From Candidatus Krumholzibacteriia bacterium (GTDB lineage: Bacteria > Krumholzibacteriota > Krumholzibacteriia > WVZY01): DNA of 49,220 bases. Positions 26,146-42,592 of this stretch are shown piece by piece; position 1 is the stretch's first letter; each line of letters starts with the position of its first letter. Under the pieces are notes generated by a model. It saw only the letters and a list, made by a program, of their open reading frames with translations, did no database searches and was not told the DNA's origin. Location of the stretch: positions 1 to 49,220 of the forward strand of contig JAZGDW010000301.1 in assembly GCA_036478295.1 (NCBI GenBank), given 5' to 3'. Position numbers and translations under genes: made by a program.

Positions 26146-26151
26146 CCAGCC

Positions 26152-27105
26152 GTGGACCGGGTTCTCGTAACGGGATGCGGCGGTTTTGTCGGCCGCGTAC
26201 TGAGCGGCGTGCTCGCCGAAGCGGGATTCGAGGTCTGGGGCATCGACCGTGCGGCCGATGGCGGGGGTGTTGCGGGCGAGCACTTCATTTCGTTAGGTCT
26301 CGAGGACCGGCGGGCGGTTGACGGGTTTCTCGAGCGCGCCCGGGCCAGGTATATCGTTCACCTTGCCGCGCAGTCCAGCGCGGGACGATCGTTCGACGAA
26401 CCCCAACAGACCATCGAAAACAACGTCCTTCCGGTACTGCACATCCTGGAATACCTGCGGACCAGTGGGACAGAAACACGCCTCCTGGCCGTCGGATCGT
26501 CGGAGGTCTACGGCGCGGTGACGAAGAAGGACCTGCCGCTGGTCGAATCCAGTCCCGTCAGTCCGGTCAGTCCTTATGCGCTCAGCAAACTGATACAGGA
26601 GCAATGCTGCCGCCAGTACGCGGGGTTGTACGAGGTGGACGTGGTCGTGACGCGGAGCTTCAACCACACCGGCGCCGGGCAGCGGGATGCGTTCGTGCTC
26701 TCGAGCTTCGCCCGGCAGATCGTGGAGATTCGAAGTGGCGTGCGCAAGCCGGTGGTCGAGGTTGGCAACGCGGATGTCCGGCGTGATTTCCTGGACGTCC
26801 GTGACGTTTGCGATGCGTATGTAGCCCTTTTGGGGAAGGGCCAGTGCGGGGCAGTGTATAATGTGTGTTCGGGTGTTTCGTACAGCCTCAGGGAGCTTCT
26901 GGAGAAGCTCGCCGCGCTGTGCGGCGTTGAGATCGAGGTACGGGTGGACCCCAAGCGCGCCCGCCCCGTCGATATAGAAGAGCTTCGCGGGGATCCCGCA
27001 AAGATTACGGCCGACACCGGCTGGCGCCCGAGTACACCCATTGAAACAACCCTGCAGTCGTTGCTGGATTACTGGTCGCGGGAGATCTCCGCGACTGGCG
27101 CATAG
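26152..27105 (+). CDS. Second GMD/Rmd-family extended SDR
   Basis: TGCGGFVG, HLAAQSS, GSSEVYG, SPYALSK and RDFLDVRD. Confidence 0.9.
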   Translation: MDRVLVTGCGGFVGRVLSGVLAEAGFEVWGIDRAADGGGVAGEHFISLGLEDRRAVDGFLERARARYIVHLAAQSSAGRSFDEPQQTIENNVLPVLHILEYLRTSGTETRLLAVGSSEVYGAVTKKDLPLVESSPVSPVSPYALSKLIQEQCCRQYAGLYEVDVVVTRSFNHTGAGQRDAFVLSSFARQIVEIRSGVRKPVVEVGNADVRRDFLDVRDVCDAYVALLGKGQCGAVYNVCSGVSYSLRELLEKLAALCGVEIEVRVDPKRARPVDIEELRGDPAKITADTGWRPSTPIETTLQSLLDYWSREISATGA

Positions 27106-27117
27106 AGGACGTTCTGG

Positions 27118-28431
27118 ATGCTGCGGATTTGTATGATAGGAACGGGGTATGTAGGTCTCGTATCCGGTTCGTGCCTGGCGGATTTCGGTAACACCGTGCG
27201 GTGTGTGGACGTCGATGCGGGGCGCATCGAGTTGCTACGCGGCGGCGGTATGCCGATCTACGAGCCGGGGCTTGGCGAGATGGTGGAGCGCAACGTGTCC
27301 AGCGGACGCCTGCAGTTTACCACGGATGTCAAAGCGGCCGTCGAGCAGTCTGAAGTGATCTTCATCGCGGTGGGGACCCCGTCGAATGCCACCGGTGCCA
27401 CCGATCTCTCGTACGTCTTCAAGGCCTCCGAGTCGATCGCGAAACACATAAACGGGTACAAGGTGATCGTTCAAAAGAGCACCGTGCCCGTCGGTACCAC
27501 GCGCGAAGTGGCCGCGATGATCAAGAAGCACGCGGGCAAGGACGCGGAGTTCGACATCGTGGCCAATCCCGAATTCCTTCGTGAAGGATCGGCTGTGGCG
27601 GATTTTCTGCGGCCGAACCGCGTGGTAATCGGTGTGGAGTCGGAGCGAGCGAGGGACGTGATGAAGAAAGTGTACCGGCCGCTTTATCTCATCGAGACCC
27701 CCATCGTTTTGACAGGGCTTGAGACGGCCGAGCTCATCAAGTACGCGAGCAACGCTTATCTGGCCACCAAGATTTCGTTCATCAACGAGATCGCGGCGAT
27801 CTGCGAGCGGGTCGGTGCGAACGTGGACGAAGTGGCCAAGGGAATGGGCCTGGACGGGCGCATCGGCGCCAAGTTTCTGCACGCCGGGGTCGGTTTCGGC
27901 GGGTCGTGCCTGCCCAAGGACGTTTCAGCGCTGGCGCACCTGTCAGGCGAGAGGGGTTACGAACCCCGGATCATACGTGCGGTTCTCGAAGTGAACGCGC
28001 AACTCGCAATGCGGGCGCTGGACAAACTCAAGGCGGAGATTTCATCGCTGGAGAACAAATCGATTGCCGTTCTCGGTCTGTCGTTCAAGCCGAACACCGA
28101 CGACTTGAGGGAAGCGCCCTCACTAAAAATTATCGAGTTGCTCGTCAGGGAAAAAGCGGCGATCCGCGTTTTCGATCCGGTGGCGATGGACCGGTTCAAA
28201 GAAACGGCCGAGGTGGGAGTAACTTGCTGCAATAGCGCGTACGATGCCGCCGAAGGATGCGACGCGCTGCTGCTGGTCACCGAATGGAATGAGTTCAGGG
28301 AGCTGGACCTTAACCGGCTCAAGAAGGCGATGCGTACGCCGGTGTTCATCGACTGCCGCAACGTTTACGAAGCGGAGCGAATGGCCGAACACGGCTTCCG
28401 TTACGACTCGTTTGGACGCGGGACGTTATGA
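27118..28431 (+). CDS. ugd: UDP-glucose 6-dehydrogenase
   Basis: GTGYVG, KSTVP, NPEFLREG, GFGGSCLPKD and FKPNTDDLRE. Confidence 0.95.
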   Translation: MLRICMIGTGYVGLVSGSCLADFGNTVRCVDVDAGRIELLRGGGMPIYEPGLGEMVERNVSSGRLQFTTDVKAAVEQSEVIFIAVGTPSNATGATDLSYVFKASESIAKHINGYKVIVQKSTVPVGTTREVAAMIKKHAGKDAEFDIVANPEFLREGSAVADFLRPNRVVIGVESERARDVMKKVYRPLYLIETPIVLTGLETAELIKYASNAYLATKISFINEIAAICERVGANVDEVAKGMGLDGRIGAKFLHAGVGFGGSCLPKDVSALAHLSGERGYEPRIIRAVLEVNAQLAMRALDKLKAEISSLENKSIAVLGLSFKPNTDDLREAPSLKIIELLVREKAAIRVFDPVAMDRFKETAEVGVTCCNSAYDAAEGCDALLLVTEWNEFRELDLNRLKKAMRTPVFIDCRNVYEAERMAEHGFRYDSFGRGTL

Positions 28432-28483
28432 CGGATCGCTGGAACGGCGCGCAATAAGGAAGCGTGTCACAAAGGAGACCGAC

Positions 28484-28939
28484 ATGATTGAAGGGGTACT
28501 TATAAAGAAGCTCAAGGTAATCCCGGACGAACGAGGTTATCTGATGGAAATGCTTCGTTCGGACGATGAGTTTTTCCAGAAATTCGGACAGGTCTATTTG
28601 ACCGCCGCCTATCCCGGCGTGGTAAAAGGCTGGCATTACCACAAGAAGCAGACCGACCATTTCGTGGGTGTGTCGGGCATGACGAAGGTGGTGTTATACG
28701 ACCAGCGTGAGGGGTCGAAGACCAGGGGCGAAGTAAACGAGTTCTTCCTCGGCGAGCGGAATCCGATCCTCCTGGTTATTCCCCCGCTGGTTGTACACGG
28801 TATGAAGGGCATCGGCGATCAGCCAGGCATGATAATCAATTGTCCCACAGAACTTTACGACTACGAGAACCCCGACGAGTACAGGATCGACCCCCACGAC
28901 AACGATATCCCGTACGACTGGGCGCGCAAGGACGGCTAG
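28484..28939 (+). CDS. rfbC: dTDP-4-dehydrorhamnose 3,5-epimerase family cupin
   Basis: AAGGAG RBS with ATG at 28484. PDERG and GVVKGWHYH. Confidence 0.85.
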   Translation: MIEGVLIKKLKVIPDERGYLMEMLRSDDEFFQKFGQVYLTAAYPGVVKGWHYHKKQTDHFVGVSGMTKVVLYDQREGSKTRGEVNEFFLGERNPILLVIPPLVVHGMKGIGDQPGMIINCPTELYDYENPDEYRIDPHDNDIPYDWARKDG

Positions 28940-28991
28940 GCAAGCGGACGTCCAGGTACGCGAGGGGACAGACGGAGAGAAGGTAGCAGAG

Positions 28992-30029
28992 GTGGCGTTC
29001 TACGGATCAATACTGGTGACGGGCGGCGCGGGTTTCATCGGCGCCAACTTCGTGCATCGCATCCACCGGCGCCACAAGGCCTGCAAGATTACCGTGCTGG
29101 ATGCCCTCACCTATGCCGGCAATCTGGAGAACCTGGAAGGCCTGCTCGACGATGACCGGGTGACCTTTGTCAAAGGATCGATTACGGACGCGGAATTGGT
29201 GCGGAAGTCAATGCGGGGCTGCGAGGCGGCGTTCAACTTTGCCGCGGAGACTCACGTCGATCGTGCGATCCAGGAGGCGGGCAGCTTCATCCATACGGAT
29301 GTATTCGGTACCTACACGATGCTGACCGTCGCCCACGAGTTAGGTCTGGAAAGGTTCATCCAGATATCTACCGATGAGGTCTACGGCAGCTCCTCCGGCG
29401 AGAACTTCACGGAGCACTCCCCCTTGAGGCCCGGCAATCCCTACTCGGCGAGCAAGTGCGGCGGCGACCTGATGTGCCAGGCGTTTCATAATACGTTTGG
29501 GGTGCCGGTTGTCATCACACGCAGTTCGAACAACTTTGGTCCCTACCAGCACGTTGAGAAGTTCATCCCGCTTTTTACGACCAACACGATCGAAGGCAAG
29601 GCGCTGCCGCTCTACGGCGACGGCATGCACGAACGGGACTGGATCTATGTTGAGGATAACTGCGCTGCCCTGGAGCTGATTGGCGTGCAAGGCGAGCTCG
29701 GTGAGATCTACAACGTCGCCGTGGGCAGCAGCCAGCCAAACCTGCATGTGGCGCGCCGCATCTTGAAACAGCTCGGGGCGCCGGAGTCGAGAATCGTCTT
29801 CATAGAAGACCGCAAGGGTCACGATCGGGCCTACGCGATGGACAGCAGCAAGCTGCAGGCGCTCGGCTGGAAACCGCAGTTCGACTTCGACACGGCGCTC
29901 GAAAAAACCGTGTCCTGGTACCAGGACAATGAGCGCTGGTGGGGCAACGTCAAGTCCGGTGATTTCCGCAAGTATTACGAATCCCACTATAAGGACAAGC
30001 TCAAGAAGGGCAAGACCTATGGCGTATAA
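28992..30029 (+). CDS. rfbB: dTDP-glucose 4,6-dehydratase
   Basis: TGGAGFIG, DALTYAGN, AAETHVDR, STDEVYG, PYSASK and DRKGHDRAY. Confidence 0.96.
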   Translation: MAFYGSILVTGGAGFIGANFVHRIHRRHKACKITVLDALTYAGNLENLEGLLDDDRVTFVKGSITDAELVRKSMRGCEAAFNFAAETHVDRAIQEAGSFIHTDVFGTYTMLTVAHELGLERFIQISTDEVYGSSSGENFTEHSPLRPGNPYSASKCGGDLMCQAFHNTFGVPVVITRSSNNFGPYQHVEKFIPLFTTNTIEGKALPLYGDGMHERDWIYVEDNCAALELIGVQGELGEIYNVAVGSSQPNLHVARRILKQLGAPESRIVFIEDRKGHDRAYAMDSSKLQALGWKPQFDFDTALEKTVSWYQDNERWWGNVKSGDFRKYYESHYKDKLKKGKTYGV

Positions 30030-31110
30030 GGTCATCGCCGTCGTTGGCGCCCGGCCCAACTACATGAAAGTGGCTCCGATCTGGCACGAGTTCGAGAACC
30101 GTTCACACGTTTCCAGAAAACTCGTGCATACCGGGCAGCATTACGACGAGAACATGTCAAAAGTGTTCTTCGACGACCTGAAGCTGCCGAAACCCGATGT
30201 GTACCTCGGCGTGGGGTCGGGGTCGCACGGAGAGCAGACAGCCAAGGTCATGATCGAGATGGAAAAGGTGCTCGCCGCCGAACGACCCGATTTCCTGATC
30301 GTGGTCGGGGATGTCAACTCAACTATGGCCTCCGCGCTGGTGGCGGTGAAGATGGGGATCGCCGTCGCACACGTCGAGGCGGGCCTGCGCAGCTTCGACC
30401 GCACGATGCCGGAGGAGATCAACCGCACGGTGACAGACATGGTAGCGTCGCTCTTGTTTACTACCGAGCGGAGCGCAGAGGAGAACCTTCTGCGCGAAGG
30501 TGTATCGAGTGAGAAAATTCACTTTGTCGGCAACGTCATGATCGACAGCCTGAAACACTACCGACCGCTCGCTGAGGCGTCGACCGTTCTCGAAGACCTC
30601 TCGCTCACAGGACAAGAGTACGGATTGGTCACGCTGCACCGGCCCTCGAACGTGGATGACCCCGCGGTGCTGCGAGAGATTCTGGGCGCCCTCATCGAGC
30701 TCGGCGCCACCTGCCCCCTGGTATTTCCCGCCCATCCCCGCACCACTAAGATAATAAATGATAACAAGATAAAAATTCCGACGGAAGCACTCCGCATTTT
30801 GCCTCCCGTAGGCTACCTCGATTTTGTTAAACTCATGGCACACGCCCGACTCGTTCTAACCGACTCAGGAGGTATCCAGGAAGAAACCACTGTACTCGAC
30901 GTCCCCTGCTTGACCATCCGTGAGAACACGGAGCGGCCCATCACCATCGAGATCGGGACCAATCGGCTGGTGGGCGTGAAGGCGGAGCGGATCCTCGGAG
31001 AGGGCCGCAAGGTCCTCGCGAATCGACAGCGAAAGGGCAGAGTCCCCGAGCTGTGGGATGGGAACGCTTCGCAGCGGATCGTGCAGGTGATCGACGAGTA
31101 CAGTTTATGA
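30019..31110 (+). CDS. wecB: UDP-N-acetylglucosamine 2-epimerase (non-hydrolysing)
   Basis: VGARPN, HTGQHYD, HVEAGLRS, PEEINR and TDSGGIQEE. Confidence 0.95.
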   Translation: MAYKVIAVVGARPNYMKVAPIWHEFENRSHVSRKLVHTGQHYDENMSKVFFDDLKLPKPDVYLGVGSGSHGEQTAKVMIEMEKVLAAERPDFLIVVGDVNSTMASALVAVKMGIAVAHVEAGLRSFDRTMPEEINRTVTDMVASLLFTTERSAEENLLREGVSSEKIHFVGNVMIDSLKHYRPLAEASTVLEDLSLTGQEYGLVTLHRPSNVDDPAVLREILGALIELGATCPLVFPAHPRTTKIINDNKIKIPTEALRILPPVGYLDFVKLMAHARLVLTDSGGIQEETTVLDVPCLTIRENTERPITIEIGTNRLVGVKAERILGEGRKVLANRQRKGRVPELWDGNASQRIVQVIDEYSL

Positions 31111-32615
31111 GCCGGCAAAAAGAGAGTTGGTCGTTTCAGGACACGTCGCTCAAGCGGAGCTTTTTGTGGAGCCTCGCTATCACCGCGTTGCCCGTCGTGT
31201 CCGGTTTTGTCGTATCGTGGGTCATCGCCCGCTGGGCCGGCCCGCGTGTCGTGGGAACCGTATCGTGGGTCATGTCCTTTGCCACAGCGGTTCTGATCAT
31301 CGGCAAGTTTGGACTGGACCTTGCCGCCTCCCGCCTGGCCAGCGAATTCGGTGTGGGCGCTGCCGGAAGCCTCCGCGCTCTCTTCAGGACCGCGATCCAA
31401 TTACGCCTTCTGTTCACATGCTCCGTGGCACTTCTTGCGTGGGTGTTTTCACCCCGTGTCGCTGGGTTCTTCGACGACACTGACCTCACCGGACCGATTC
31501 GTGTCGGTGCCCTGGTTGTCGTTTGCGCCAGCCTCTATGAATTCAAAGAGAATTTTCTGATCGGGTTGAACCGCCTGCAGACGGTGTACCGCATTCGTGC
31601 CGTCCACTTGCTGCTCAGGGTTCTGGTGACCTGTGTGCTCGTATTTCTGGGCCTGGGGGCGACGCAAATCCTCGGCGGGTACTGCGCAGCCTGGGCGGTC
31701 GCGATCGCCGTCTACGTGGCCATGCTGATGCGGTTTCTGCCCGTGGAGGATGCGGGGCCTGCGCGAGAGGGCCTGGCGCGCCGGCTCCTGGTACTGAGCG
31801 TGCCGCTCGCAGTCAGTAGCGCGTCGGTGACGATCTACTCGCACATGGACCGGTTGATGCTGGGGTATTTTTCGGGGATTGAGGAGGTCGGACAGTACGC
31901 CGTGGCGAGAAACATCTCTGAAGTCTCACTTTTTCCCGTGTTTGCGCTGATCATGATGTTGAGACCCGCCCTGGCCTCCCGCTTTTCCGGAGGAGATGTT
32001 ACCGAATGCGCGGCGATCATCCGGCGCTCCCTCCGCTTCTCGCTGGTCTCGGGCGTTCTTTTCGCGGCGATTTTCGCAGTCTTCGGTTTGCCGCTGGTGA
32101 CGGCCGTGTTTTCCAGGGATTTCTCGCACGCGGGCGGGCTCATGATATTCTTTGCCGGGGTGATCGTGTTTCGTTCGATCGGCGCGGTCATTCTGCCGTC
32201 GCTCGTCGCCGCCGAGCGCACGCGCGTATATGCCTATTTGACAGCGGCCTCAGCGGTGTTGAACTTTGCGCTAAACCTGGTCCTGATTCCAAAGTACCAG
32301 GCGCGGGGCGCCGTCATTGCTACCCTCGTGTCCTACGGGGTGTTACTGATCGTTGGATTGCACGAGGTATTTGTTACCTACGGGGTTCGCCTCAGCGGGC
32401 GGAGCGTGTCGCTGGGACTTCGCACGATTCTTGCTGGATCGCTCGCGGCCGGGATCGTGTGGCCGCTACGCGGCCGCACCGGGCTCGAATGGGAGGCGTT
32501 CTTGTGGGCCGGTGTTCTCACCGTGGCCTATGCATTATTGGCGGTTGCGTTTCGTGTGGCACGCGCGGAAGACATTCGGGTTTTGCTCATTAACCTAAGG
32601 AAATCAAAGGGATAG
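31107..32615 (+). CDS. Wzx-like polysaccharide flippase (MOP/PST family)
   Basis: Polytopic membrane protein with DRLMLGYF...VGQYAVA and NLVLIPKY.A.GA. ATGA overlap with wecB. Confidence 0.9.
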   Translation: MSRQKESWSFQDTSLKRSFLWSLAITALPVVSGFVVSWVIARWAGPRVVGTVSWVMSFATAVLIIGKFGLDLAASRLASEFGVGAAGSLRALFRTAIQLRLLFTCSVALLAWVFSPRVAGFFDDTDLTGPIRVGALVVVCASLYEFKENFLIGLNRLQTVYRIRAVHLLLRVLVTCVLVFLGLGATQILGGYCAAWAVAIAVYVAMLMRFLPVEDAGPAREGLARRLLVLSVPLAVSSASVTIYSHMDRLMLGYFSGIEEVGQYAVARNISEVSLFPVFALIMMLRPALASRFSGGDVTECAAIIRRSLRFSLVSGVLFAAIFAVFGLPLVTAVFSRDFSHAGGLMIFFAGVIVFRSIGAVILPSLVAAERTRVYAYLTAASAVLNFALNLVLIPKYQARGAVIATLVSYGVLLIVGLHEVFVTYGVRLSGRSVSLGLRTILAGSLAAGIVWPLRGRTGLEWEAFLWAGVLTVAYALLAVAFRVARAEDIRVLLINLRKSKG

Positions 32616-32629
32616 CGCCGGATTCTCGC

Positions 32630-32658
32630 TTGACAGAATATTCACGAGCCGATAATGT
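32630..32658 (+). promoter_or_regulatory. Putative sigma-70 promoter of the wecA-like gene
   Basis: TTGACA-17 nt-TAATGT. Confidence 0.55.
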
Positions 32659-32705
32659 GTGCGGTGAGTGGGGAAAGGCGTGACAGCCCACCAACGGGGG
32701 AAAAT

Positions 32706-33785
32706 TTGGCTGGTTTCGAAGTATGGACAACATTCTTCACCGCATTCGTTGCGGTGGTAGTTGTTACGCCAATCGTGCGTAAGTACGCACTTCGATGGAA
32801 GCTCGGCGACAAGCCCAACGGGCGAAAGATCCATACCGCCAACATCCCGCACATCGGGGGAATCGCGATCGTCGTGGGAACGTTGCTGGGTCTTTTCGCC
32901 GCCCAGGTGTTCGCCGTCGCGGGAGCGGAGTCCTTGTCCGCGAAGGTTCTGCTGCCGGTCACCCTCATCGTTGGGCTCGGATTGACCGATGACATCAAGA
33001 ACCTGAAGGCGCGACGGAAGTTAACCGTGCAGGTCATCGCGTCACTCGTTCTGGCCATGCTGGGCGTACGTCTCTACATCGGCCTACCCGTCTTCGATGG
33101 GAGCCTGATTCTTGTGGTCGCACTCAGCGCGTTTTACCTGGTCGGGATATCGAGCTCCGTCAATCTGATCGACGGCCATGACGGCCTCGCCGCGGGAACC
33201 TCCCTGATCTCTGCCGTCGCTTTCGCCGTCCTTGCAGTTACCACCAACGCACCGTGGCTGCTGTTGCTATCGCTCTCGGTCGCCGGAGCGTGTCTGGGAT
33301 TTCTAATCTACAATTTTCCGCCGGGCAGGATTTTCATGGGGGATACGGGTAGCATGTTTCTCGGCGTCATGTTGGGAATCGTCGCCTGTTATTTCACAAT
33401 GATGCAACCGACTATCAATACGTTCGTTGCAGTCTGTTTTGTCTTGTCGATTCCGATGATCGATTCATGTCTGGCCATCGTGCGGCGCCTGTCTCTGCGA
33501 CGACCGGTGTTTCAGGCGGACTGCCTTCACATCCACCACATCCTGGCTTCGTTTGGGTTTTCGACCCGTGAGACATTGTTCATTCTCTATGGGATGCAGG
33601 CCGTTATGGCTTTCCTGGGGATCCTGGTGATGAAAGGCTTCACGGTGCCGCTGGTCCTCGGGCTAATTATTCTCGCCCTTACGTTCTATACTTTCATTCG
33701 TATTATGGTGGCCGCCGAAAGTGGTGAGCGAGAAACCGCCTCCCCGAAGTTTTCTCCGGGCTCCTTCCCGTCCCTCGAAAAATAG
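32706..33785 (+). CDS. Undecaprenyl-phosphate alpha-GlcNAc-1-phosphate transferase (WecA/TagO, MraY family); start uncertain (32655 or 32706)
   Basis: DKPNGRKIH, GLTDD, NLIDGHDGLA, IFMGDTGS and DCLHIHH. Confidence 0.92.
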   Translation: MAGFEVWTTFFTAFVAVVVVTPIVRKYALRWKLGDKPNGRKIHTANIPHIGGIAIVVGTLLGLFAAQVFAVAGAESLSAKVLLPVTLIVGLGLTDDIKNLKARRKLTVQVIASLVLAMLGVRLYIGLPVFDGSLILVVALSAFYLVGISSSVNLIDGHDGLAAGTSLISAVAFAVLAVTTNAPWLLLLSLSVAGACLGFLIYNFPPGRIFMGDTGSMFLGVMLGIVACYFTMMQPTINTFVAVCFVLSIPMIDSCLAIVRRLSLRRPVFQADCLHIHHILASFGFSTRETLFILYGMQAVMAFLGILVMKGFTVPLVLGLIILALTFYTFIRIMVAAESGERETASPKFSPGSFPSLEK

Positions 33786-33822
33786 CGTCCGTTTATTTTC
33801 TTCCGGTGCCACATAGAATCCG

Positions 33823-33852
33823 TTGACGATCGAGCGGTCATTATGGTATTTT
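33823..33852 (+). promoter_or_regulatory. Putative sigma-70 promoter of the hemC-like/serS genes
   Basis: TTGACG-18 nt-TATTTT with an extended TG. Confidence 0.5.
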
Positions 33853-33909
33853 CTTGTCTCGCTTTTTCCGGTACAAGTTTGAACCGTCCTGTCTTTCGGG
33901 AGTGCGCCC

Positions 33910-34830
33910 GTGCCGACTATTACACGTTGCCGCATAGCAAGCGACGTCGATTTCCTCTCCAGGGTTCAACTCGAGGAAGTTTCTCGGGATTTAAAAAAAC
34001 ATTGCCCGAGGCTCGACATCGAAACGGTCGCTCCGGGAAACGAAACCGCGGCGGATAACAACCGTCCTCCAAACTCACCTATCCGCGTCGCCCACCTCAT
34101 GAACGAACTTTTGCAGGGAAAGTGCGACGCATTGGTTTTGAATGCGACACATCTTCCCGCAAGGCTGCCCAACGGGCTCACATTCGGTGCCATTACGAAC
34201 CGCCTGATACCGTACGACGTACTGATTTCTTCTTCGGACTGCCTGCTCGATGAACTGCCCGAGAACGCGTCTGTCATCGCCAACGACGAACGCCGCGAGG
34301 CCCAGCTGCTCTACTACCGGCCGGACTTGAAAATGGTGCGGACCCGGGGGAGCGTCGATTCGGTCATCCAGAAGGTCAAGAACCAGAAGGTGGATGCCGC
34401 GATTCTCGCCGCCGGTGACGTCGAGAGACTGCAGAAGCAGGACCATGTAGTAGAGTTTCTGACCTGTTCGATCTGCATCCCGGCGGCCGGACAGGGCTCG
34501 CTGGCCGTCCTGGTCCGCTCCAACGACGATCAGGCCAAACGATCGATGCATGTGATCAACGACCCGGCCTCGTACAGCGAAATCGTGGCCGAGTGGGCTT
34601 TCCTCGATTCGCTGGGTATACAGAGCCGCTCGCCGGTGGGGGTTCTCGGCAGCATCGAGGGCCGGTCGCTCGAGCTCGAGGGTATGATCGCATTGCCGGA
34701 TGGGCGTGAGCGGATTCACGCTTTGGTGAAAGGTACGGTGGGGCATGAGGTGGAGCTGGGAGAGAAGCTCGCCAACGAGACTCTCGAAGCCGGCGGAAGA
34801 GCACTTTTGCAGGAACTCGACCTCCTTTGA
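33910..34830 (+). CDS. Porphobilinogen deaminase (HemC)-like protein, catalytically degenerate
   Basis: Full-length HemC architecture (RREAQLLYYRPDL, DAAILAA, PAAGQGSLAV, LGEKLA), but the HS.KD and GGC..P motifs are replaced. Confidence 0.88.
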   Translation: MPTITRCRIASDVDFLSRVQLEEVSRDLKKHCPRLDIETVAPGNETAADNNRPPNSPIRVAHLMNELLQGKCDALVLNATHLPARLPNGLTFGAITNRLIPYDVLISSSDCLLDELPENASVIANDERREAQLLYYRPDLKMVRTRGSVDSVIQKVKNQKVDAAILAAGDVERLQKQDHVVEFLTCSICIPAAGQGSLAVLVRSNDDQAKRSMHVINDPASYSEIVAEWAFLDSLGIQSRSPVGVLGSIEGRSLELEGMIALPDGRERIHALVKGTVGHEVELGEKLANETLEAGGRALLQELDLL

Positions 34831-34861
34831 TTTACTCATCCGATATTCCAGGGGAAAAACT

Positions 34862-36130
34862 GTGTTGGACCGGCGCCTGATTCGTGAGGACCCGCAGCGT
34901 GTTATCCGCGGAGTCCGCGCAAAGGGCGTCGACGTCGATCTTGAAAAACTGATGGAGCTCGACCGGCGCCTTCTTGCGCTGGTGCAGGCCAACGACAAAC
35001 TCAAGCACGAGCGTAACGTGAAAACGGAAGAGGTTGCCCGCAAGAAGCGTGCGGGAGAGGATTCCGGGGAGCTGCACAGTTACCTCAAAGAACTTTCCGA
35101 CAAGATAAAGGAGCGAGAGGCTGAGCATAAGGACATCAGTGCCGCATTGGACGACCTGATGCTGTCCATTCCCAATCTTCCGCACGAAAGCGTCCCCAAC
35201 GGCAAGGGTGAGAAGGACAACGCTGAGCGTCGTTCGTGGGGTGATCCGGCGGAACCCTTTGAGGATATCTTGCCGCACTGGGACATCGGTGAAAAGCTGG
35301 GCATCCTGGACCTCGAAGCGGGGCGCCGCGTGACGGGGCGCGGGTACATCGTATTTCGCAAGGATGGGGCGCTGCTCTGCCGGGCGCTGATCAACATGAT
35401 GCTCAATATGCACCTCGAGCAGGGGTACGAAGAGGTGGCCGTGCCCTTCATGGTGAGCCGCGATTCGATGACCGGCACCGGGCAGCTGCCCAAGATGCAG
35501 GACGACATGTACCACTGCGAGATCGACGACTTGTTCCTCATTCCGACCGCCGAAGTTCCCGTCACCAACCTCGAGCGCGACTCGTTCATCCCCGCCGATC
35601 GCCTGCCGATCAAGTACACTTCGTACACGCCGTGCTTCCGGCGCGAGGCGGGCAGCCACGGCGCCGACACGCGTGGCCTGCTGCGTGTGCACCAGTTCGA
35701 TAAGGTGGAGATGGTAAAATTTGTCTACCCGGACCACTCGTACGACGAATTGGAAACGCTGGTGGACGATGCGACGGCCGTCCTGGAAGCGCTGGAACTA
35801 CCCTACCGCGTCATCGAGCTCTGCAGTGCGGAGTTGAGCTTCGCCGCCGCCAAGTGCTACGACCTGGAAGTGTTCGCCCCGGGGGTCGGCAAGTGGCTCG
35901 AAGTATCCTCGTGCAGCAATTTCGAGGATTTCCAGGCGCGCCGCGCGGGCATCAAGATCAAGAAGGTAGGCGGCGAGAAACATCGCTTCGTGCACACCCT
36001 GAACGGATCCGGTCTTGCATTGCCCCGCACGATCGCCGCCATTCTGGAAGTTCACCAGACGCCGACGGGACGTGTTAGAATTCCTGAGAAGCTGGTGCCC
36101 CACATGGCCGGCAAGGAATTTCTGGGATAG
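34862..36130 (+). CDS. serS: Seryl-tRNA synthetase
   Basis: LIPTAEVP, CFRREAGS, RVHQFDKVE, EVSSCSN and HTLNGSGLA. GTG start. Confidence 0.98.
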   Translation: MLDRRLIREDPQRVIRGVRAKGVDVDLEKLMELDRRLLALVQANDKLKHERNVKTEEVARKKRAGEDSGELHSYLKELSDKIKEREAEHKDISAALDDLMLSIPNLPHESVPNGKGEKDNAERRSWGDPAEPFEDILPHWDIGEKLGILDLEAGRRVTGRGYIVFRKDGALLCRALINMMLNMHLEQGYEEVAVPFMVSRDSMTGTGQLPKMQDDMYHCEIDDLFLIPTAEVPVTNLERDSFIPADRLPIKYTSYTPCFRREAGSHGADTRGLLRVHQFDKVEMVKFVYPDHSYDELETLVDDATAVLEALELPYRVIELCSAELSFAAAKCYDLEVFAPGVGKWLEVSSCSNFEDFQARRAGIKIKKVGGEKHRFVHTLNGSGLALPRTIAAILEVHQTPTGRVRIPEKLVPHMAGKEFLG

Positions 36131-36153
36131 ACAAGCCGCCCCGCCTTCACGCG

Positions 36154-37413
36154 ATGATAGGATCACTATCAAACTACCGCGGTAACATTCGTTTTTGGCT
36201 CAAGGCCTATTTGTTAATCGGCGTGGCGCTCCTGACCCTGGGTGTGTTCCTTTACAACAACCGGGTCATCAGGCGTATGGAGGAGCAGTCCGCCGCTACC
36301 ACGAGCCTCTTTTCGCGGTTTATTGCGGAGGTGGTGCTGGAAGTCCAGGATGAGGGCAAGCGCAGAATCCTGCAGGACGTGATGCAGAGGATCGAGCTGC
36401 CCGTGGTGCTGACCGATGTGGACGGGCGCCCGTTCGGCTGGCACCGGGTCGGCGTCGAACCACCGTCCGAGGAGGATTTCGAGAACCTCGCTACCCTTGA
36501 TCCGGCCAACCCCCCAGAGGGAAAAATGAAGGCGCTGGTAGAACGGATCCGCAAGATGGACAAGAGCCGCGATCCGATTCCAATTCGTGCCGCGGACTCG
36601 GGCGAGGTGCTGGCGTATGTCCATTTCGGCCTGTCGAGACTGCAGCGGGAGTTGCGCCTGATGCCCTTTATCCAGCTGGCCTTGTTTCTGGTATTCATGG
36701 CGGTGGCGCTGCAGGGGTTTCGCTACCTCAAGCTCAGCGAACAGCGTTCGATCTGGGTGGGGATGGCCAAGGAAACCGCCCATCAGCTGGGCACACCGCT
36801 GTCGGCGTTGCTGGGTTGGACGCAGCTGCTGCGTGACCAGGTGGCGGAGGGCAAGAGCGAGGACATCGCGACATCGGTGGACGAGATGGAAGAGGATCTG
36901 CGCCGCCTGAGCAAGGTCACCGAGCGGTTCAGCAAGATCGGGGCGCAGCCCGAGCTAAAAACCATTTCCATTTCAGAAGTGCTGGAGCGCACGGCCCAGT
37001 ATTTCCACCGGCGCCTGCCGCGGCTCAAAGCCGATTCGACCCTCACGCTCGAGTTCGAGGAGACGCCGCTGATGCGCGGCAATGAAGAGTTGCTCGAATG
37101 GGTGTTCGAAAACCTCATCAAGAACGGGCTGGACGCGCTGGGCGAGAGCGGCGGCACCATCTCCATCCGCACCCGCTACGATCCGTCGAAGCGCATGGTG
37201 GAGATTACCGTGCACGATTCGGGCAAGGGCGTTCCGCCGGCCCTGAGACACCGGATCTTCTCGCCGGGGTTTACGACCAAGCGGCGGGGGTGGGGACTCG
37301 GGCTCGCGCTGACACGCCGGATTGTCGAAGATTATCATGGAGGCGAACTGAAACTCGCCGACTCCCACGCGGGCAAGGGCAGTACCTTCATGGTCCGGTT
37401 CCCGGTTTCTTGA
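36154..37413 (+). CDS. Membrane sensor histidine kinase
   Basis: Two TM segments. H-box ETAHQLGTP, N-box ENLIKNG, DSGKG and TTKRRGWGLGL. Confidence 0.95.
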   Translation: MIGSLSNYRGNIRFWLKAYLLIGVALLTLGVFLYNNRVIRRMEEQSAATTSLFSRFIAEVVLEVQDEGKRRILQDVMQRIELPVVLTDVDGRPFGWHRVGVEPPSEEDFENLATLDPANPPEGKMKALVERIRKMDKSRDPIPIRAADSGEVLAYVHFGLSRLQRELRLMPFIQLALFLVFMAVALQGFRYLKLSEQRSIWVGMAKETAHQLGTPLSALLGWTQLLRDQVAEGKSEDIATSVDEMEEDLRRLSKVTERFSKIGAQPELKTISISEVLERTAQYFHRRLPRLKADSTLTLEFEETPLMRGNEELLEWVFENLIKNGLDALGESGGTISIRTRYDPSKRMVEITVHDSGKGVPPALRHRIFSPGFTTKRRGWGLGLALTRRIVEDYHGGELKLADSHAGKGSTFMVRFPVS

Positions 37414-37547
37414 GTGCGCCGCAGAATACGCTATCCCGCTTGAGATAAACGGATTATATTTATCTCGCTATGCCGGCCCGAGGGCGGCGTAGCGAATGCC
37501 GATTGAAGCTGGCAGCACATAGGGCGGTTTTTTAGAAGGCGGTGCAC

Positions 37548-39098
37548 GTGGCTGGTCAAAGGATACTGTGGGTGGACGACGAGATCGAGCTGTTGAAATC
37601 GCACGTGCGGTTTCTAGAGGGCAAGGGTTACGTAGTCAGCGAAGCGACCAACGGCGAAGACGCCGTCGAGCTGGTTAAAGCGCAGAAGTTCGACGTGCTT
37701 CTGCTCGACGAATCCATGCCCGGGAAGGGCGGGCTGGAAACGCTGAATGAGATCAAAGAGGCAGACCCCACGCTTCACGTGGTCATGATCACGAAGAACG
37801 AGGAAGAGAGCCTGATGGACGACGCCATCGGCATGAAGATCTCGGACTACCTGCTCAAACCGGTCAGCCCGATGCAAATCCACTCCGCGTGCAAGCGGAT
37901 CCTCGAGGGGCACCGGCTGCAGGAGACCCGGTTTTCCCAGGACTACGTCAAGGAGTTCAACAACATGAACTCGCTGATCGATGAGGGTACCTGGGACAGC
38001 TGGTTGCGCGTGCATCGGAAGCTCAGCGAATGGGACCTGGAGTTCGACCGCTTTCGCGACAGCGGTCTCGAAGATACTCATGAAGAGCAAAAGCTAAACG
38101 CGAACAAACATTTTTGCCGGTTTATAGAAAAGCAGTACCCTGACTGGCTGCGGTCTGAGGACCGTCCGCCGCTCAGCGTCGATATTTTTAGTCGCTTCGT
38201 GGCACCGCATGTCAAAGCCGGCGATCAGGTGCTGTTCATCGTGATCGACTGTGTGCGGCTCGACCAGTGGCTGATCATAGAAGAGATTCTCAGCGAACAT
38301 TTCACCGTCAAACGTGACTACCACCTGTCGATACTGCCAACGGCGACCCCGTATTCGAGAAACGCGATATTCAGCGGACTCTTTCCCGATGAGATCGCAC
38401 GGAAATATCCAGACAAGTGGACCGAGAAATCCAAGAATGAGACCAGTAAGAACCGCCATGAACAGTTTCTGCTCAAAGAGCAGTTGAATCGGGCGGGCCT
38501 GCCGTCGGACCGCCTGCGCTACCACAAAATCTACGCCGTCCAAGAGGCCAACGAATTGGGAAAGAAGATCGACGCTACTTTATCGGTGCCGTTCGTCGCG
38601 ATGGTCTTCAACTTCGTCGACATGCTGACCCACGGGCGCAACCAGTCGGAAGTCCTGAAACAGGTCGCGCCGGATGAAGCTGCTTTTCGTTCGGTAGTAC
38701 GCTCCTGGTTCTCGCACTCGGTTCTGCTGGACATTCTCAGACACGCGGCCAGGAAGAACATCAAGGTAATCATGACCACCGATCATGGTTCCGTACTGAG
38801 CCGCCGGGCCAGCCTGGTCTACGGCCGCCGTGATACCTCGACTAACCTCCGCTACAAGTACGGGGATAGCCTCAAGTGCGACGACAAGCAGGCGATCGTC
38901 TGCCGAAATCCGGCCGAGTTCCGGTTACCCGCGGAATCCAAGACCAAGACCTATCTGTTTGCGAAGGAGTATTTCTACTTCGTCTACCCCACGAACTACA
39001 GGGACTACGAGCGACAGTTCCAGGGGAGTTTTCAGCACGGAGGCGTTTCGCTCGAAGAAATGATCCTGCCGTGCCTGACTCTGTTGCCCAAGGCTTGA
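37548..39098 (+). CDS. PorX-like response regulator with a PglZ (alkaline-phosphatase superfamily) output domain
   Basis: Receiver motifs WVDDE, LLDESMPG, MITKNEEE and KP. PglZ motifs IDCVRLDQW, LPTATPYSRN, DMLTH, TDHG and FQHGGVSLEEM. Followed by tsaE. Confidence 0.92.
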   Translation: MAGQRILWVDDEIELLKSHVRFLEGKGYVVSEATNGEDAVELVKAQKFDVLLLDESMPGKGGLETLNEIKEADPTLHVVMITKNEEESLMDDAIGMKISDYLLKPVSPMQIHSACKRILEGHRLQETRFSQDYVKEFNNMNSLIDEGTWDSWLRVHRKLSEWDLEFDRFRDSGLEDTHEEQKLNANKHFCRFIEKQYPDWLRSEDRPPLSVDIFSRFVAPHVKAGDQVLFIVIDCVRLDQWLIIEEILSEHFTVKRDYHLSILPTATPYSRNAIFSGLFPDEIARKYPDKWTEKSKNETSKNRHEQFLLKEQLNRAGLPSDRLRYHKIYAVQEANELGKKIDATLSVPFVAMVFNFVDMLTHGRNQSEVLKQVAPDEAAFRSVVRSWFSHSVLLDILRHAARKNIKVIMTTDHGSVLSRRASLVYGRRDTSTNLRYKYGDSLKCDDKQAIVCRNPAEFRLPAESKTKTYLFAKEYFYFVYPTNYRDYERQFQGSFQHGGVSLEEMILPCLTLLPKA

Positions 39099-39099
39099 C

Positions 39100-39588
39100 A
39101 TGCTCGAGCCCCGATCAGAGAAGAAATCGATGGATTCTTCTTCCGAAGCGAGCACGGAGCGGTTCGGGATCGAGTTGGGTCTCCGCATCGGGCAAGCCAC
39201 CTGCGTCAGCCTGGTTGGTCCACTGGGATCCGGCAAGTCTGTGATCGCACGGGGTATCTGCTCCGGTCTGGGCGTGAAGGAGTCCGTAGTCAGTCCCACC
39301 TTCATTCTCTACGAGGAATACCGGGGCCGGCTGCCCGTGATACACTGCGATCTTTACCGTCTGGAACATGAACGGGAGCTCGAGGAGTTGGGTGTCTTCG
39401 ATCGCATCGGCCTGGACGCGGTGGTTCTGGTCGAATGGGGCGATCGCTCTCCCGGGATCCACGACCGGGCGGATATTGTCGTGCAGCTGGCGGTGACGGG
39501 CGGGACAGGTCGGCGCATCGACGTGCACTACCGTCCGTGGACACGCGCCCTTTTTGACGGATGGGCCGCCACACCTCTCCAGGGGTGA
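39100..39588 (+). CDS. tsaE: t6A biosynthesis ATPase
   Basis: GPLGSGKS, VSPTF, HCDLYRL and VEW. Confidence 0.93.
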   Translation: MLEPRSEKKSMDSSSEASTERFGIELGLRIGQATCVSLVGPLGSGKSVIARGICSGLGVKESVVSPTFILYEEYRGRLPVIHCDLYRLEHERELEELGVFDRIGLDAVVLVEWGDRSPGIHDRADIVVQLAVTGGTGRRIDVHYRPWTRALFDGWAATPLQG

Positions 39589-39589
39589 A

Positions 39590-40318
39590 ATGATGCGGGT
39601 TCTCGGCATCGACACATCGCACGCCACCGGAAGCGTCACAGTCCGGGGCTCGCGGGGCAGCGTGGAGCATACGACCTTCGGACCCGGCTCGTCCCATCTG
39701 GTCGAGTTGTGCGCGGCGGTCGACAAACTTTTGATCGGTAGCGACCTCGATATAACAGACATCGACCGTGTCGCTCTCGTCTCCGGCCCGGGGAGCTTCA
39801 CGGGTTTGAGGATCGGCCTGTCCTTCGTCAAAGGCCTCTTCGCGGCGCGCCCGCTGGAAGTGGTCACCATGACCAGTCTCGAACTGCTCGCCATCCAGGC
39901 GGCGCGCGAACACGAACGTGTCTGTGCCATGGTTGACGCGCGCAGAGACGAAGTGTACGGGGCGCTCTATGTGGCGGACGGACAATACCCCGTGGACGGC
40001 ACGCCGATTCCACGGGTGCGGGCCGAGATAGAACCGCGAGCTGCGTCGCCCGCGGAGTTTTTGACGTCTCTGGAGAAATGTCCCACACTCTTTGTGGGAT
40101 CGGGCGCCGTGCGTTACGCGCAACTGGTCCGCGACACCTTCGGCGACAGCACCGTTGCCTGTGCCACTGACAGCCAGCCGTCGACGGAGCTACTCTGCAA
40201 TATCGCCCCGGCGCTCGAGCCGGTGGATCCGGGGAAAGTGCCTCAAATGGAGCCTTTTTACATTCGCCCGAGCGGTGCCGTTCTCAAGCCTCTGCGAAGG
40301 ATACGCAGCGATGGATGA
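39590..40318 (+). CDS. tsaB: t6A biosynthesis protein
   Basis: LGIDTS, GPGSFTGLRIG, DARRDEVY and EPFYIR. Confidence 0.94.
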   Translation: MMRVLGIDTSHATGSVTVRGSRGSVEHTTFGPGSSHLVELCAAVDKLLIGSDLDITDIDRVALVSGPGSFTGLRIGLSFVKGLFAARPLEVVTMTSLELLAIQAAREHERVCAMVDARRDEVYGALYVADGQYPVDGTPIPRVRAEIEPRAASPAEFLTSLEKCPTLFVGSGAVRYAQLVRDTFGDSTVACATDSQPSTELLCNIAPALEPVDPGKVPQMEPFYIRPSGAVLKPLRRIRSDG

Positions 40319-40808
40319 GATAAAGCTCGTGCCGATGAATACAGCTCACATCCCCCAGGTTCTCTCCATCGAGAGGCGGGTGTTCACGACGCCGTGGTCC
40401 AAAGAGATGTTCGTACAGGAAGTGCGGGGGGTCTTTGGATCGAAGGCGGTGGCGGCGATGCTGGGCGGCCACGTGATTGGATACTGCATCGCGTGGTTCA
40501 TCGATGAGGAGGTTCACCTGGTCAATCTCGCCGTAACGCCGGGGTATCAAAACCGCGGGATCGGAACACGGTTGCTCAGGCAATTGCTCGACGAGGCCAC
40601 AGCGGATAGCAGGCAGACGATTACGCTGGAAGTGCGAGAAAGCAACGCCGGCGCTCAGGCGTTCTATCGCAGGTTTCTGTTTCAAACCATTGGTGTTCAC
40701 AAACGCTACTATTCGGATAACCGGGAAGACGCCCTTTTGATGGCGCTGAATCTCGAAGATCTCCCGGAGTGGGGAGCTTCTGGTGAGGACAGATCCGATG
40801 CCGGCTGA
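40311..40808 (+). CDS. rimI: Ribosomal-protein-alanine N-acetyltransferase
   Basis: FTTPWS, NLAV..GYQNRGIG, LEVRESN and YYSDNREDALLM. Confidence 0.93.
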   Translation: MDEIKLVPMNTAHIPQVLSIERRVFTTPWSKEMFVQEVRGVFGSKAVAAMLGGHVIGYCIAWFIDEEVHLVNLAVTPGYQNRGIGTRLLRQLLDEATADSRQTITLEVRESNAGAQAFYRRFLFQTIGVHKRYYSDNREDALLMALNLEDLPEWGASGEDRSDAG

Positions 40809-41568
40809 GGCCGACCCGCTCCAGGGTGCAACCCTGGCGGTGGTTCTGGGCAGCGGCCTGGGTGGGATAAGTGAGTCTTTTTTCGTACGAGCACAACGCA
40901 AGTTTCAAGATGTTCCCGGTCTGGACGCAGCGTGTACCGAAGGTCACGCCGGAGAACTGAAGTTGTGCCGGGTGGAGAACCGGCCCTGCCTGTTTGTCTG
41001 CGGTCGCCGGCACTACTACGAAGGCCAACCCCAACAGATAGCGACGCTGGTCGAGTACCTGCACGCTCTGGGTATCCGCCGCCTGCTCCTCACCTCAGCG
41101 GCGGGCAGCCTCACGACCGAGTGCGCGCCGGGTAGCCTCATGCTGACCGATAGCCTCCTGGACTTCCAGTTTCGTCCGCCGACCGTGCCCGCTGGAGGCG
41201 GGCAGTCCCCCAGGCGGGTGCCCGGCCTCGATGGGAAGCTGCAGGCGGCACTGGCGAGGGCGGCGAAGCGAGCGGGCGTGGCGCTCGCCCGCGGGTCCCT
41301 GGCGTGCACCGCGGGTCCCCTTTACGAAACTCGTTCTGAAGTGATTTTTTTGAAACGACTTGGGATTTCAACGGTCTCGATGTCGGGCGCAGCGGAGGTC
41401 GCGGCGGCCGGTGAGTTCGGCATCCAAATTGCTAGCGTGGTACTGGTAACCAACTGGGCGACCGGAAGTTCCGGCGCCCGTCTCAAACACGCCGACGTGC
41501 TGGATCGCGGTCGGAGGACGGCAGACGACCTCAAACGTGTGATCGTCCAGCTGGTTACCGATTCGTAG
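40798..41568 (+). CDS. Purine-nucleoside phosphorylase (trimeric type), divergent
   Basis: VLGSGLG, GHAG, GRRHYYEG, GPLYET, MS and TN motifs. Confidence 0.85.
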   Translation: MPAEADPLQGATLAVVLGSGLGGISESFFVRAQRKFQDVPGLDAACTEGHAGELKLCRVENRPCLFVCGRRHYYEGQPQQIATLVEYLHALGIRRLLLTSAAGSLTTECAPGSLMLTDSLLDFQFRPPTVPAGGGQSPRRVPGLDGKLQAALARAAKRAGVALARGSLACTAGPLYETRSEVIFLKRLGISTVSMSGAAEVAAAGEFGIQIASVVLVTNWATGSSGARLKHADVLDRGRRTADDLKRVIVQLVTDS

Positions 41569-41689
41569 TGGGGGGGAGGTGGCGGAGATATTTTTCGGTT
41601 GTGGACGACTCCCGCGCGCCGTATAGTTAGTTTGAACTTTAGATTTGGCTTATAGTTAGAACTTCGAAGGCAAGAGGGGTACGACGAGC

Positions 41690-42592
41690 ATGTCGTGGTT
41701 CAAGAGGACCAAGAAGGGACTGACGGGCGCCACCGTCAAGAAATCGCTGCCCGATGGATTGTGGCAGAAGTGCGAGCTGTGCGGAGAGATCCTCTACGTG
41801 AAGGAACTCGAAAAGCGGCTCTGGGTGTGCTCGAAGTGCGGCTATCATTTCATTATCGGCACCGACAAGTACATCGAGATCTTGTGCGACCCCGGTACCT
41901 TCGAGGAGACTCACACAGGCCTTCGCTCCGGCGATCCCCTCGAGTTCAAGGATGTCAAGCGCTACGCGGACCGGCTCAAACAGTACACGGAAAAAACCGG
42001 CCGGGACGACGCCGTGATCACTGGACTCGCCCGGATCGATGGTCGTGACATCGTTCTCGCCATCATGGATTTTTCGTTCATGGGTGGGAGCATGGGATCG
42101 GTGGTCGGGGAAAAAATTGCCCGGGCCATGGAAGACGCCATCACTTCGCGTAACCCACTGATTATCGTGTCGCGTTCGGGCGGTGCGCGCATGCAGGAGT
42201 CGATACTTTCGCTCATGCAGATGGCCAAGACGTGCGCCATGCTCTCCTGCATGTCGGAAAAGAGAGTCCCGTACATTTCGATCATGACCAACCCCACCAC
42301 CGGCGGCGTGACTGCCAGTTTCGCCAGCCTCGGGGACGTCATCATTGCCGAGCCCAAGGCCCTCATCGGCTTCGCCGGGCCGAGGGTCATAAAACAGACG
42401 ATTCTTCAAGAACTGCCGGAAGGTTTCCAACGTAGCGAGTTCCTGCTCGAGCGCGGGATGATCGACATGATTCGCTCTCGCGACAAGCTGCGCAATACTC
42501 TCGAAGAACTGCTTGGTTTTTTTTGTGCTGAGGTAGCCACCACCCCACAAGAGGCGGATAAGGATGAGGAGGAATCGTCCGCGGTTTCCTGA
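41690..42592 (+). CDS. accD: Acetyl-CoA carboxylase carboxyltransferase beta subunit
   Basis: GLWQKC zinc finger, FMGGSMG, SGGARMQE, GGVTAS and FAGPRVI. Confidence 0.97.
   Translation: MSWFKRTKKGLTGATVKKSLPDGLWQKCELCGEILYVKELEKRLWVCSKCGYHFIIGTDKYIEILCDPGTFEETHTGLRSGDPLEFKDVKRYADRLKQYTEKTGRDDAVITGLARIDGRDIVLAIMDFSFMGGSMGSVVGEKIARAMEDAITSRNPLIIVSRSGGARMQESILSLMQMAKTCAMLSCMSEKRVPYISIMTNPTTGGVTASFASLGDVIIAEPKALIGFAGPRVIKQTILQELPEGFQRSEFLLERGMIDMIRSRDKLRNTLEELLGFFCAEVATTPQEADKDEEESSAVS

Follow-up and report, generated by a model that had tools for sequence, protein, structure and literature searches.

A HemC homologue lacking the cofactor cysteine and the catalytic aspartate, retained upstream of serS in Candidatus Krumholzibacteriota

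Our analysis identifies a homologue of hydroxymethylbilane synthase (HemC) that shows the features of a pseudoenzyme: essential residues are missing, the fold is kept, selection is purifying and the promoter is conserved. The best reading is that a moonlighting protein-binding surface is older than catalysis and has outlasted it. With a probability of about 0.58, we propose that the product is a non-catalytic binding protein whose acidic-hydrophobic strip would contact a housekeeping, probably basic partner, a role that would already have existed in a bifunctional ancestor. The window is the whole stretch of DNA analysed (49,220 nucleotides), and we refer to HemC homologues that have lost catalytic residues as dead.

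The gene and its altered active site

The features discussed here are as follows, with residues in query numbering unless they are replaced E. coli residues. Residue equivalences come from an alignment to the genome's own canonical HemC, in which the E. coli number is the query number plus 3 (query 60-302, E. coli 63-305).

32655..33785, + strand: WecA/MraY-family glycosyltransferase (PF00953; Pfam/NCBIfam), which ends a sugar-nucleotide/flippase cluster
33823..33852, + strand: sigma70-type promoter-like site TTGACG-18-TATTTT with a TG extension (TG-n-TATTTT), heading the dead hemC-serS unit
33898..33902, + strand: Shine-Dalgarno-like GGGAG ahead of the GTG start (from the sequence)
33910..34830, + strand: dead HemC (hydroxymethylbilane synthase) homologue, three-domain, 306 amino acids, GTG start, zero internal stops
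33943..33951, + strand: D12-x-D14 replacing R11-x-S13, invariant in the order-level family only
34138..34152, + strand: L77-N-A-T-H81 replacing H-S-x-K-D84, catalytic Asp gone (alignment)
34201..34254, + strand: hinge and start of domain 2, with R98 and P101 shared by HemC and signature positions Y102, L112, D114 and E115 (alignment)
34291..34320, + strand: R128-R129 (kept pyrrole-binding arginines), Q132, and signature positions Y136 and R137 (alignment)
34423..34464, + strand: core signature E172, Q177, V180, E182 and T185, in a domain 2 helix and the next strand (conservation counts)
34570..34593, + strand: first helix of domain 3, with signature S221 and E224 and structural E228 (alignment)
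34624..34626, + strand: S239, where HemC has the cofactor-anchoring Cys242 (alignment)
34862..36130, + strand: serS, seryl-tRNA synthetase, second gene of the unit (TIGR00414, 471.8 bits; GTG start)
36154..39098, + strand: histidine kinase and PorX-type response regulator/PglZ protein, in inherited gene order (NF052313, 657 bits, cut-off 300)

The reading frame is full length and uninterrupted, as the earlier note had described it, and the GTG codon of serS lies 31 bp past the dead hemC stop. The candidate promoter proposed there is conserved in loci of the same order. One promoter-like site is found upstream of dead hemC (0.3 expected), and a by-eye reading of the 30 best same-order loci finds a GTTGAC plus TG-n-TA element 5' of dead hemC in 30/30. 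A GGA/GGGAG-like element followed by a GTG or TTG start is common to the same 30 loci. Other hem genes are absent among the open reading frames of 26000-43000, six of which were scanned against Pfam/NCBIfam and the rest by eye.

Both HemC families in Pfam match the dead HemC (PF01379, E-value 1e-35; PF03900, E-value 4e-8). Its TIGR00212 score, 171.9 bits, is narrowly above the cut-off of 164; full-length canonical copies score 234-341 and non-canonical copies at most 210. An AlphaFold2 model built with 102 homologues has a pLDDT of 90.8 and a pTM of 0.88. In a Foldseek search with this model, ranks 1-32 are all HemC structures (TM 0.84-0.91) and type II binding-protein folds appear from rank 33 on. 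The model resembles the HemC structures 1PDA, 4MLV and 7CCX with TM 0.87-0.91 and rmsd 1.6-3.1 Å, and neither Foldseek nor a PDB profile search brings up anything nearer than HemC or a second enzyme fold. Matches in the ESM Atlas are to HemC-family clusters only. The third of these is a 71-member cluster of proteins of approximately 283 amino acids, commonest in Gemmatimonadota and with PF03900 in 14%, which is possibly another altered HemC family.

In HemC, the dipyrromethane cofactor is anchored by Cys242. This residue is replaced by S239 in the dead HemC, and R232 by W229. R11 and S13 become D12 and D14, and the GGKG-F loop is replaced. The H-S-x-K-D motif is changed at H80 (L77), S81 (N78), K83 (T80) and D84 (H81); T127-S128-S129 becomes A124-N125-D126, N151 becomes S148 and R155 becomes V152. 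Retained are the equivalents of Q19, R101, R131, R132, R149, R176, Q198 and E231 (Q20, R98, R128, R129, R146, R173, Q195 and E228 in the query). Among arginines 11, 131, 132, 149, 155, 176 and 232, four of the seven are thus kept (131, 132, 149 and 176), while 11, 155 and 232 are Asp, Val and Trp, and the protein scores 4/10 on the catalytic-site residue set. All six motif changes quoted in the earlier note are present. Its statement that essentially all catalytic machinery had been lost is nonetheless too strong: the Cys, the Asp, Arg11, Lys83, Arg155 and Arg232 are gone, but four active-site arginines remain. According to PMC3945110, D84A/D84N and R131L/R132L variants of E. coli HemC are inactive and R11H/R155H/R232H variants are impaired. 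No Cys occupies the cofactor position in 120 tabulated copies, which were picked for its absence, nor in 45 dead copies read. Judged from its sequence, the dead HemC would be unable to carry the dipyrromethane cofactor in the known manner, because the equivalents of Cys242 and Asp84 are missing. The gene product is a HemC homologue predicted to lie outside the active HemC family, failing at the Cys, the Asp and three of the seven arginines.

Distribution, selection and origin at the locus

Among 155 Ca. Krumholzibacteriota genomes with completeness of at least 85%, 145 contain a non-canonical HemC copy. We read 89 of these copies residue by residue and all are dead (four are fragments); the other 56 were assigned by score and place. 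Orthologues within the order are found in 34/35 genomes at 53-84% identity, the one genome without a match being 68% complete. The ten phylum genomes with no dead copy comprise family f4 (5/5), which has a divergent serS in a different context; G097 and G098, in which dead hemC is cleanly deleted and wecA abuts serS; G081 and G091, in which the contig begins within serS; and G055, which has a canonical HemC copy only.

The rest of the haem pathway is distributed differently. hemB is present in 96/155 and hemA in 95/155 of these genomes, and the dead copy is present in 55 of the 59 genomes that lack hemB; HemD is absent in all four hemB-negative genomes tested. Carriers that have hemB generally have a separate canonical hemC. 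The source genome itself has hemB next to its canonical hemC, on a contig (C220) with the order hemA-hemC/hemD fusion-hemB-hemE-hemL, so that the true hemC that the earlier note expected elsewhere does exist. A partner among the haem enzymes was considered and ruled out, as many carriers are without hemA, hemB or hemD, and a role within haem synthesis is excluded as a general explanation.

Several observations concern haem use in the phylum. A cytochrome c assembly protein is encoded in all four tested genomes without hemA and hemB (among G015, G079, G087, G066 and G097, the last being additional to the four), and its presence makes haem use possible in those four hemB-negative genomes. The whole of families f5 and f8 and most of f6 look like haem auxotrophs. 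The source genome has multihaem cytochrome frames on contigs C170, C197, C205 and C271, with up to 19 CxxCH motifs in one. One genome (G011) has two canonical HemC copies in addition to the dead copy. Canonical HemCs of different phylum families (L001, L041, L045, L049, L052) do not group together, with low support, which suggests at that same low support that hem operons were acquired repeatedly within the phylum.

Dead hemC is under purifying selection, including in genomes without hemA, hemB or hemD. dN/dS was calculated by the Nei-Gojobori method with Jukes-Cantor correction; dS approaches saturation, and the analysis kept the 245/435 pairs in which it is below 1.5. Against a genome of the same genus the ratio is 0.098 for dead hemC, 0.096 for serS and 0.19 for wecA. 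Over the 245 pairs the median for dead hemC is 0.26 and the maximum 0.54, compared with medians of 0.20 for serS and 0.32 for wecA; the orthologue comparison proposed in the earlier note thus gives values below 0.55 throughout. Frames are open across two phyla, with one frameshifted copy (G066). In-frame TGA codons read as selenocysteine were considered and rejected: five of six are terminal stops and one reflects a frameshift. Neutral decay is excluded as a general explanation. The preference for repurposing over decay, expressed in the earlier note, is borne out by phylum-wide retention, purifying selection, the conserved promoter and the separate canonical operon, and relatives in the phylum carry neither intact active sites nor randomly degraded copies.

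A profile of outlying matches led to Ca. Eisenbacteria, where four loci read wecA-dead hemC-serS-kinase. In a sample from this phylum, 81/121 genomes have a match, counting one unpublished genome (G184) that supports none of our claims. Of the best 30 Eisenbacteria loci, 25 have a dead copy with serS next and five an intact copy. Six Eisenbacteria genomes encode a HemC with 10/10 catalytic residues followed by hemD, hemB, serS and the kinase, with hemL in five; hemD is fused to cobA in two of the six, after a sirC-like gene. Dead loci correspond to this intact hemC-hemD-hemB-hemL run before serS, minus hemD, hemB and hemL. Because the six intact hemC-hemD-hemB(-hemL)-serS loci lie at the same place, the dead gene is the native hemC remaining after deletion of hemD/B/L and not a drifted duplicate.

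How often catalysis was lost at this locus can be approached with two trees. On a SerS+kinase+PorX tree (a quick LG+G4 search, with 8/38 rows under half filled), intact and dead loci are interleaved and at least four changes are required. Grouping the intact loci in a single clade is rejected (p-AU 0.019); a 100%-supported clade that holds two dead groups also contains three of the intact loci. The dead groups differ in the catalytic residues lost. A HemC tree with catalytic and signature columns left out and 26/91 rows dropped does not reject a single origin of dead copies (p-AU 0.31). A first HemC tree had placed 45/46 non-canonical rows on one side of a branch and is unreliable, as it included the trait columns and has long branches. 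As a single origin is compatible with the HemC tree on its own, we regard repeated loss of catalysis at the hemC locus as likely rather than certain. The neighbour tree also requires at least nine changes in presence of the gene. No dead hemC remnant is seen at any of 30 Eisenbacteria serS loci (30 fetched of 35 searched) from genomes chosen for lacking a signature match. The job of the gene is dispensable in some lineages. Closely related genomes with and without the gene include G048 versus G097/G098, G191 versus G193/G244/G269, G206/G260/G278 versus G179/G208/G211, G180/G270 versus G182/G256/G268, and G175 versus G172/G196/G205.

The neighbours name no partner. In the 30 best same-order loci, serS lies 3' of dead hemC in all 30 and a WecA-type gene 5' of it in 29, the contig ending in the remaining one. 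The linkage to serS reported in the earlier note therefore holds within the order but is broken in two families: f3 and f7 loci read have no serS within approximately 5 kb downstream. The link is one of inherited gene order. No neighbour gene is constant beside dead hemC, and a partner is not indicated because f3 and f7 are without serS, several Eisenbacteria groups lack the sugar cluster, and G097 lost dead hemC alone. No gene is lost alongside dead hemC among the neighbours of G097 as compared with G048, or upstream of 30 serS loci without dead hemC. We rejected a role as a SerS accessory factor, as the linkage is inconstant and SerS changes do not match presence; no SerS or kinase column convincingly tracks dead hemC across both phyla. 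A selenocysteine link via SerS is uninformative, with selA in 78/80 genomes with and without dead hemC, a trait that looks near-universal in both phyla. The kinase and the PorX-type/PglZ protein lie 3' of serS in both phyla, followed by tsaE-tsaB; both phyla lie outside the Bacteroidota, in which PorX has been studied. In many Eisenbacteria without dead hemC, a small TPR-like lipoprotein gene lies shortly 5' of serS, often directly 3' of rpsP (L160, L161, L167, L173, L174, L176, L177, L179-L181, L185 and others).

A conserved signature outside the cleft

Dead copies less than 60% identical to one another share residues that are rare in ordinary HemC. E172 (39/39), Q177 (38/39), V180 (37/39) and E182 (39/39) occur in 20%, 11%, 19% and 55% of 175 ordinary HemC sequences, respectively, and E224 (37/39) in 17%. 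I112 (30/39) and T185 (27/39) each occur in 1%; position 112 is Leu in the dead HemC described here and Ile in most members of the family. Additionally, D/E114 and D/E115 are each found in 39/39 dead copies and F/Y102 in 35/39. Residues R98, P101, Q132, P191, G196 and E228 are structural and common to all HemC, the dead copies included.

We scored this signature over 11 non-cleft positions picked from the dead copies. Among 503 full-length sequences, a tally that counts redundant sequences too, the signature is present in 190 dead and 31 intact ones; 3 dead and 278 intact sequences lack it, and 1 is intermediate. Of the three dead sequences without it, one is garbled and two are unrelated. Two HemC homologues without the cofactor Cys, P0196 and P0210, score 1 and 4 of 11 and represent separate degenerate lineages. 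All 44 phylum copies that we read only once the signature had been fixed score 7-11 of 11, with E172 in every one. The intact locus-mates of Eisenbacteria, unused in building the score, reach 8, 10, 11, 9, 9 and 5 of 11, and 11 HemCs from hemA operons of the same phylum score 1-3; E224 is Gln or Ala in most of the intact locus-mates. The locus with the score of 5 (L136, genome G234) has an intact hemC-hemD-hemB-hemL-serS order and is possibly a mirror case in which catalysis was kept and the second job lost. Since the intact locus-mates share ancestry with the dead copies, part of the signature may be lineage-specific packing. The signature-bearing P0132, P0236 and P0255 may extend the range beyond two phyla.

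The cleft behaves differently from the signature. For domain 1 and the active-site loop, identities are 0.20, 0.12 and 0.29 among dead copies versus 0.43, 0.40 and 0.55 among ordinary HemC; for the hinge, domain 2 and domain 3 they are 0.51, 0.36 and 0.31 versus 0.47, 0.47 and 0.37. No cleft position is constant across dead copies less than 55-60% identical, and the net charge of the cleft ranges from +5 to -4 across dead families. Within the source order, D12, D14 and R59 are invariant and the cleft arginines R128, R129 and R173 at least 90% conserved. The polypyrrole contacts listed in Table 1 of PMC3945110 include none of the signature positions (query number plus 3). The same paper names K175, beside R176, on a simulated exit path; it corresponds to a signature position. 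From secondary structure and the known HemC fold, we infer that the signature forms one outer strip, which would begin at the 112-115 loop, follow strand 180-185 and reach the first helix of domain 3.

Dead HemCs of families f3 and f7 have a D/E-rich C-terminal tail of 32-85 amino acids in 9/9 copies inspected (L040, L042, L044, L047, L050, L102, L103, L106, L107). The f3 tail opens with a conserved L-L-E-x-x-F-P-x-G motif.

Possible functions and comparison with known systems

We propose the following history. The common ancestor of Krumholzibacteriota and Eisenbacteria would have had a bifunctional HemC. Synthesis of haem precursors would have disappeared, or a different hem operon would have assumed it, upon which hemD/B/L would have been deleted and hemC kept for its second job; decay of the cleft would have come afterwards, separately in several lineages. 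In its second job the protein would most likely dock onto a housekeeping partner and act as its accessory subunit or regulator. A candidate docking strip in domain 2 and the hinge would comprise F/Y102, I112, D114, D/E115, Y136, E172, Q177, V180, E182, T185, S221 and E224, and the partner would probably be basic, such as a nucleic-acid-binding protein. More tentatively, at somewhat less than even odds, the ancestral two-job HemC may have coupled tetrapyrrole synthesis to a housekeeping machine (tRNA- or ribosome-related, for example) via a dedicated surface, with catalysis shed independently four or five times and the surface kept.

Could the signature instead mark a new site for a small molecule, outside the old cleft, that serves either binding or catalysis? 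A pair of its carboxylates and an aromatic residue might, for example, act on a sugar nucleotide or envelope polymer made by the ugd/epimerase/wecB/flippase/wecA cluster. E172 and E182 are invariant, with Q177, D/E114, D/E115 and F/Y102 nearly so, and dead hemC closes the sugar cluster in every carrying phylum family, even where serS has moved. However, E224 and Q177 vary across whole groups (to A or Q, and to H, Y, E or L), the upstream position is taken by ffh-rpsP or an ABC transporter in several Eisenbacteria groups, G097 lost dead hemC while keeping all flanking sugar genes, and the structure and profile searches show no second enzyme fold; we consider this explanation unlikely. Non-covalent ligand binding in the old cleft, with porphobilinogen, a bilane, haem or some other anion as the ligand, would make the protein a cytoplasmic sensor or chaperone resembling periplasmic binding proteins; we find this quite improbable. 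The type II binding-protein fold recovered by Foldseek fits this idea, as do the retained R128, R129 and R173, the invariance of D12, D14, P54 and R59 in 102 order-level sequences, the D84 and several arginines kept by many Eisenbacteria dead copies, and the cytochrome c assembly protein in 4/4 genomes without haem synthesis, which may import haem. Against it, no cleft position is conserved family-wide and in some groups 0-1 of the 10 catalytic residues survive; the charge of the cleft changes sign between families; no His, Met or Cys that could ligate haem iron is conserved; and G097 has the cytochrome c assembly protein without dead hemC. The ligand sensor suggested in the earlier note is accordingly not favoured, as the cleft differs between families and the conserved residues lie outside it, but a lineage-specific ligand site within the source order is possible from the residues conserved there.

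Continued hydroxymethylbilane synthase activity by a cofactor-free mechanism is barely credible. The protein passes the TIGR00212 cut-off, bears the enzyme's name in databases and keeps four active-site arginines, but Cys242, Asp84, Arg11, Lys83 and Arg155 are missing, the substrate-making hemB is absent from 55 carriers, and carriers with hemB generally have a canonical hemC besides. It is next to impossible that the gene is a relic in decay which persists because it lies behind the serS promoter. Its promoter could indeed serve serS, and the gene has been cleanly deleted in several lineages; this reading is nevertheless already refuted by a dN/dS equal to that of serS in the nearest pair and low in all others, by frames open across two phyla with the single exception of G066, by residues invariant at approximately 30% overall identity, and by retention in f3 and f7, where no serS follows.

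The proposed non-catalytic docking protein would be of interest beyond this locus. At a single locus the family offers orthologues that are intact, partly eroded or fully dead, together with probable repeated losses and a small set of residues to mutate, which makes it a rare, testable series for the origin of pseudoenzymes from prior moonlighting. If the two-job ancestor is true, these orthologues form a natural series from moonlighting to pure pseudoenzyme without gene duplication. Identification of the partner would expose a new regulatory link in two widespread uncultured phyla. The dead copies also matter for annotation: because they pass the TIGR00212 cut-off and are named hydroxymethylbilane synthase in databases, they inflate predictions of the tetrapyrrole pathway in genomes without hemA and hemB. 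In our search of the openly accessible literature, main texts and abstracts only, a bacterial HemC that is dead yet retained, or that moonlights, did not come up, and neither did a description of the intact signature HemC of Eisenbacteria. A review on haem synthesis from 2026 (PMC13564367) mentions no dead HemC in the passages searched.

The closest known system is HemC itself (EC 2.5.1.61; PF01379 and PF03900; TIGR00212). The dead copy descends from a true hemC at its locus and shares the three domains, the length, the hinge motifs, the R98/E228 pair and PAAGQG. It differs in lacking the Cys, the Asp, Arg11, Lys83, Arg155, Arg232 and the GGKG-F loop, in having no other hem genes nearby, in its own non-cleft signature and in being kept without the pathway. 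HemC is a textbook single-purpose enzyme. The intact signature HemC of some Ca. Eisenbacteria (L119, L128-L131, P0126, P0389-P0407) shares with the dead copy its place before serS-kinase-porX and the signature (8-11 of 11), but has its own 10/10 catalytic residues and keeps the hemD(cobA)-hemB-hemL genes; in five genomes (L119, L128-L131) it is the sole HemC match.

HisZ is an inactive paralogue of HisRS that regulates HisG, its known partner. It resembles the dead HemC in having kept the fold and lost the chemistry, and in its role as a binding or regulatory subunit, which for the dead HemC is proposed by analogy; HisZ came from a duplication, whereas the dead HemC is the original gene. Sensors of the type II periplasmic-binding fold (LAO, MetQ, LysR effector domains) share the two-lobed domains 1-2 with a cleft. 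They differ in that their TM to the dead HemC is 0.38-0.44 and the dead-HemC cleft is not conserved; neither a signal peptide nor a DNA-binding domain is evident in the dead HemC. In plant plastids, HemC/SPL42 binds MORF8 and the PPR protein OTP85 and has a job in RNA editing, according to PMC9866984, so the HemC fold can moonlight. The likeness would lie in a HemC with protein partners beyond tetrapyrrole synthesis, which we propose for the dead HemC by analogy; the plant protein differs in being catalytically active and in having eukaryotic partners that are absent from bacteria. Pseudoenzymes are a known kind; what is new here is the signature shared with intact locus-mates and the likely repeated change at one locus.
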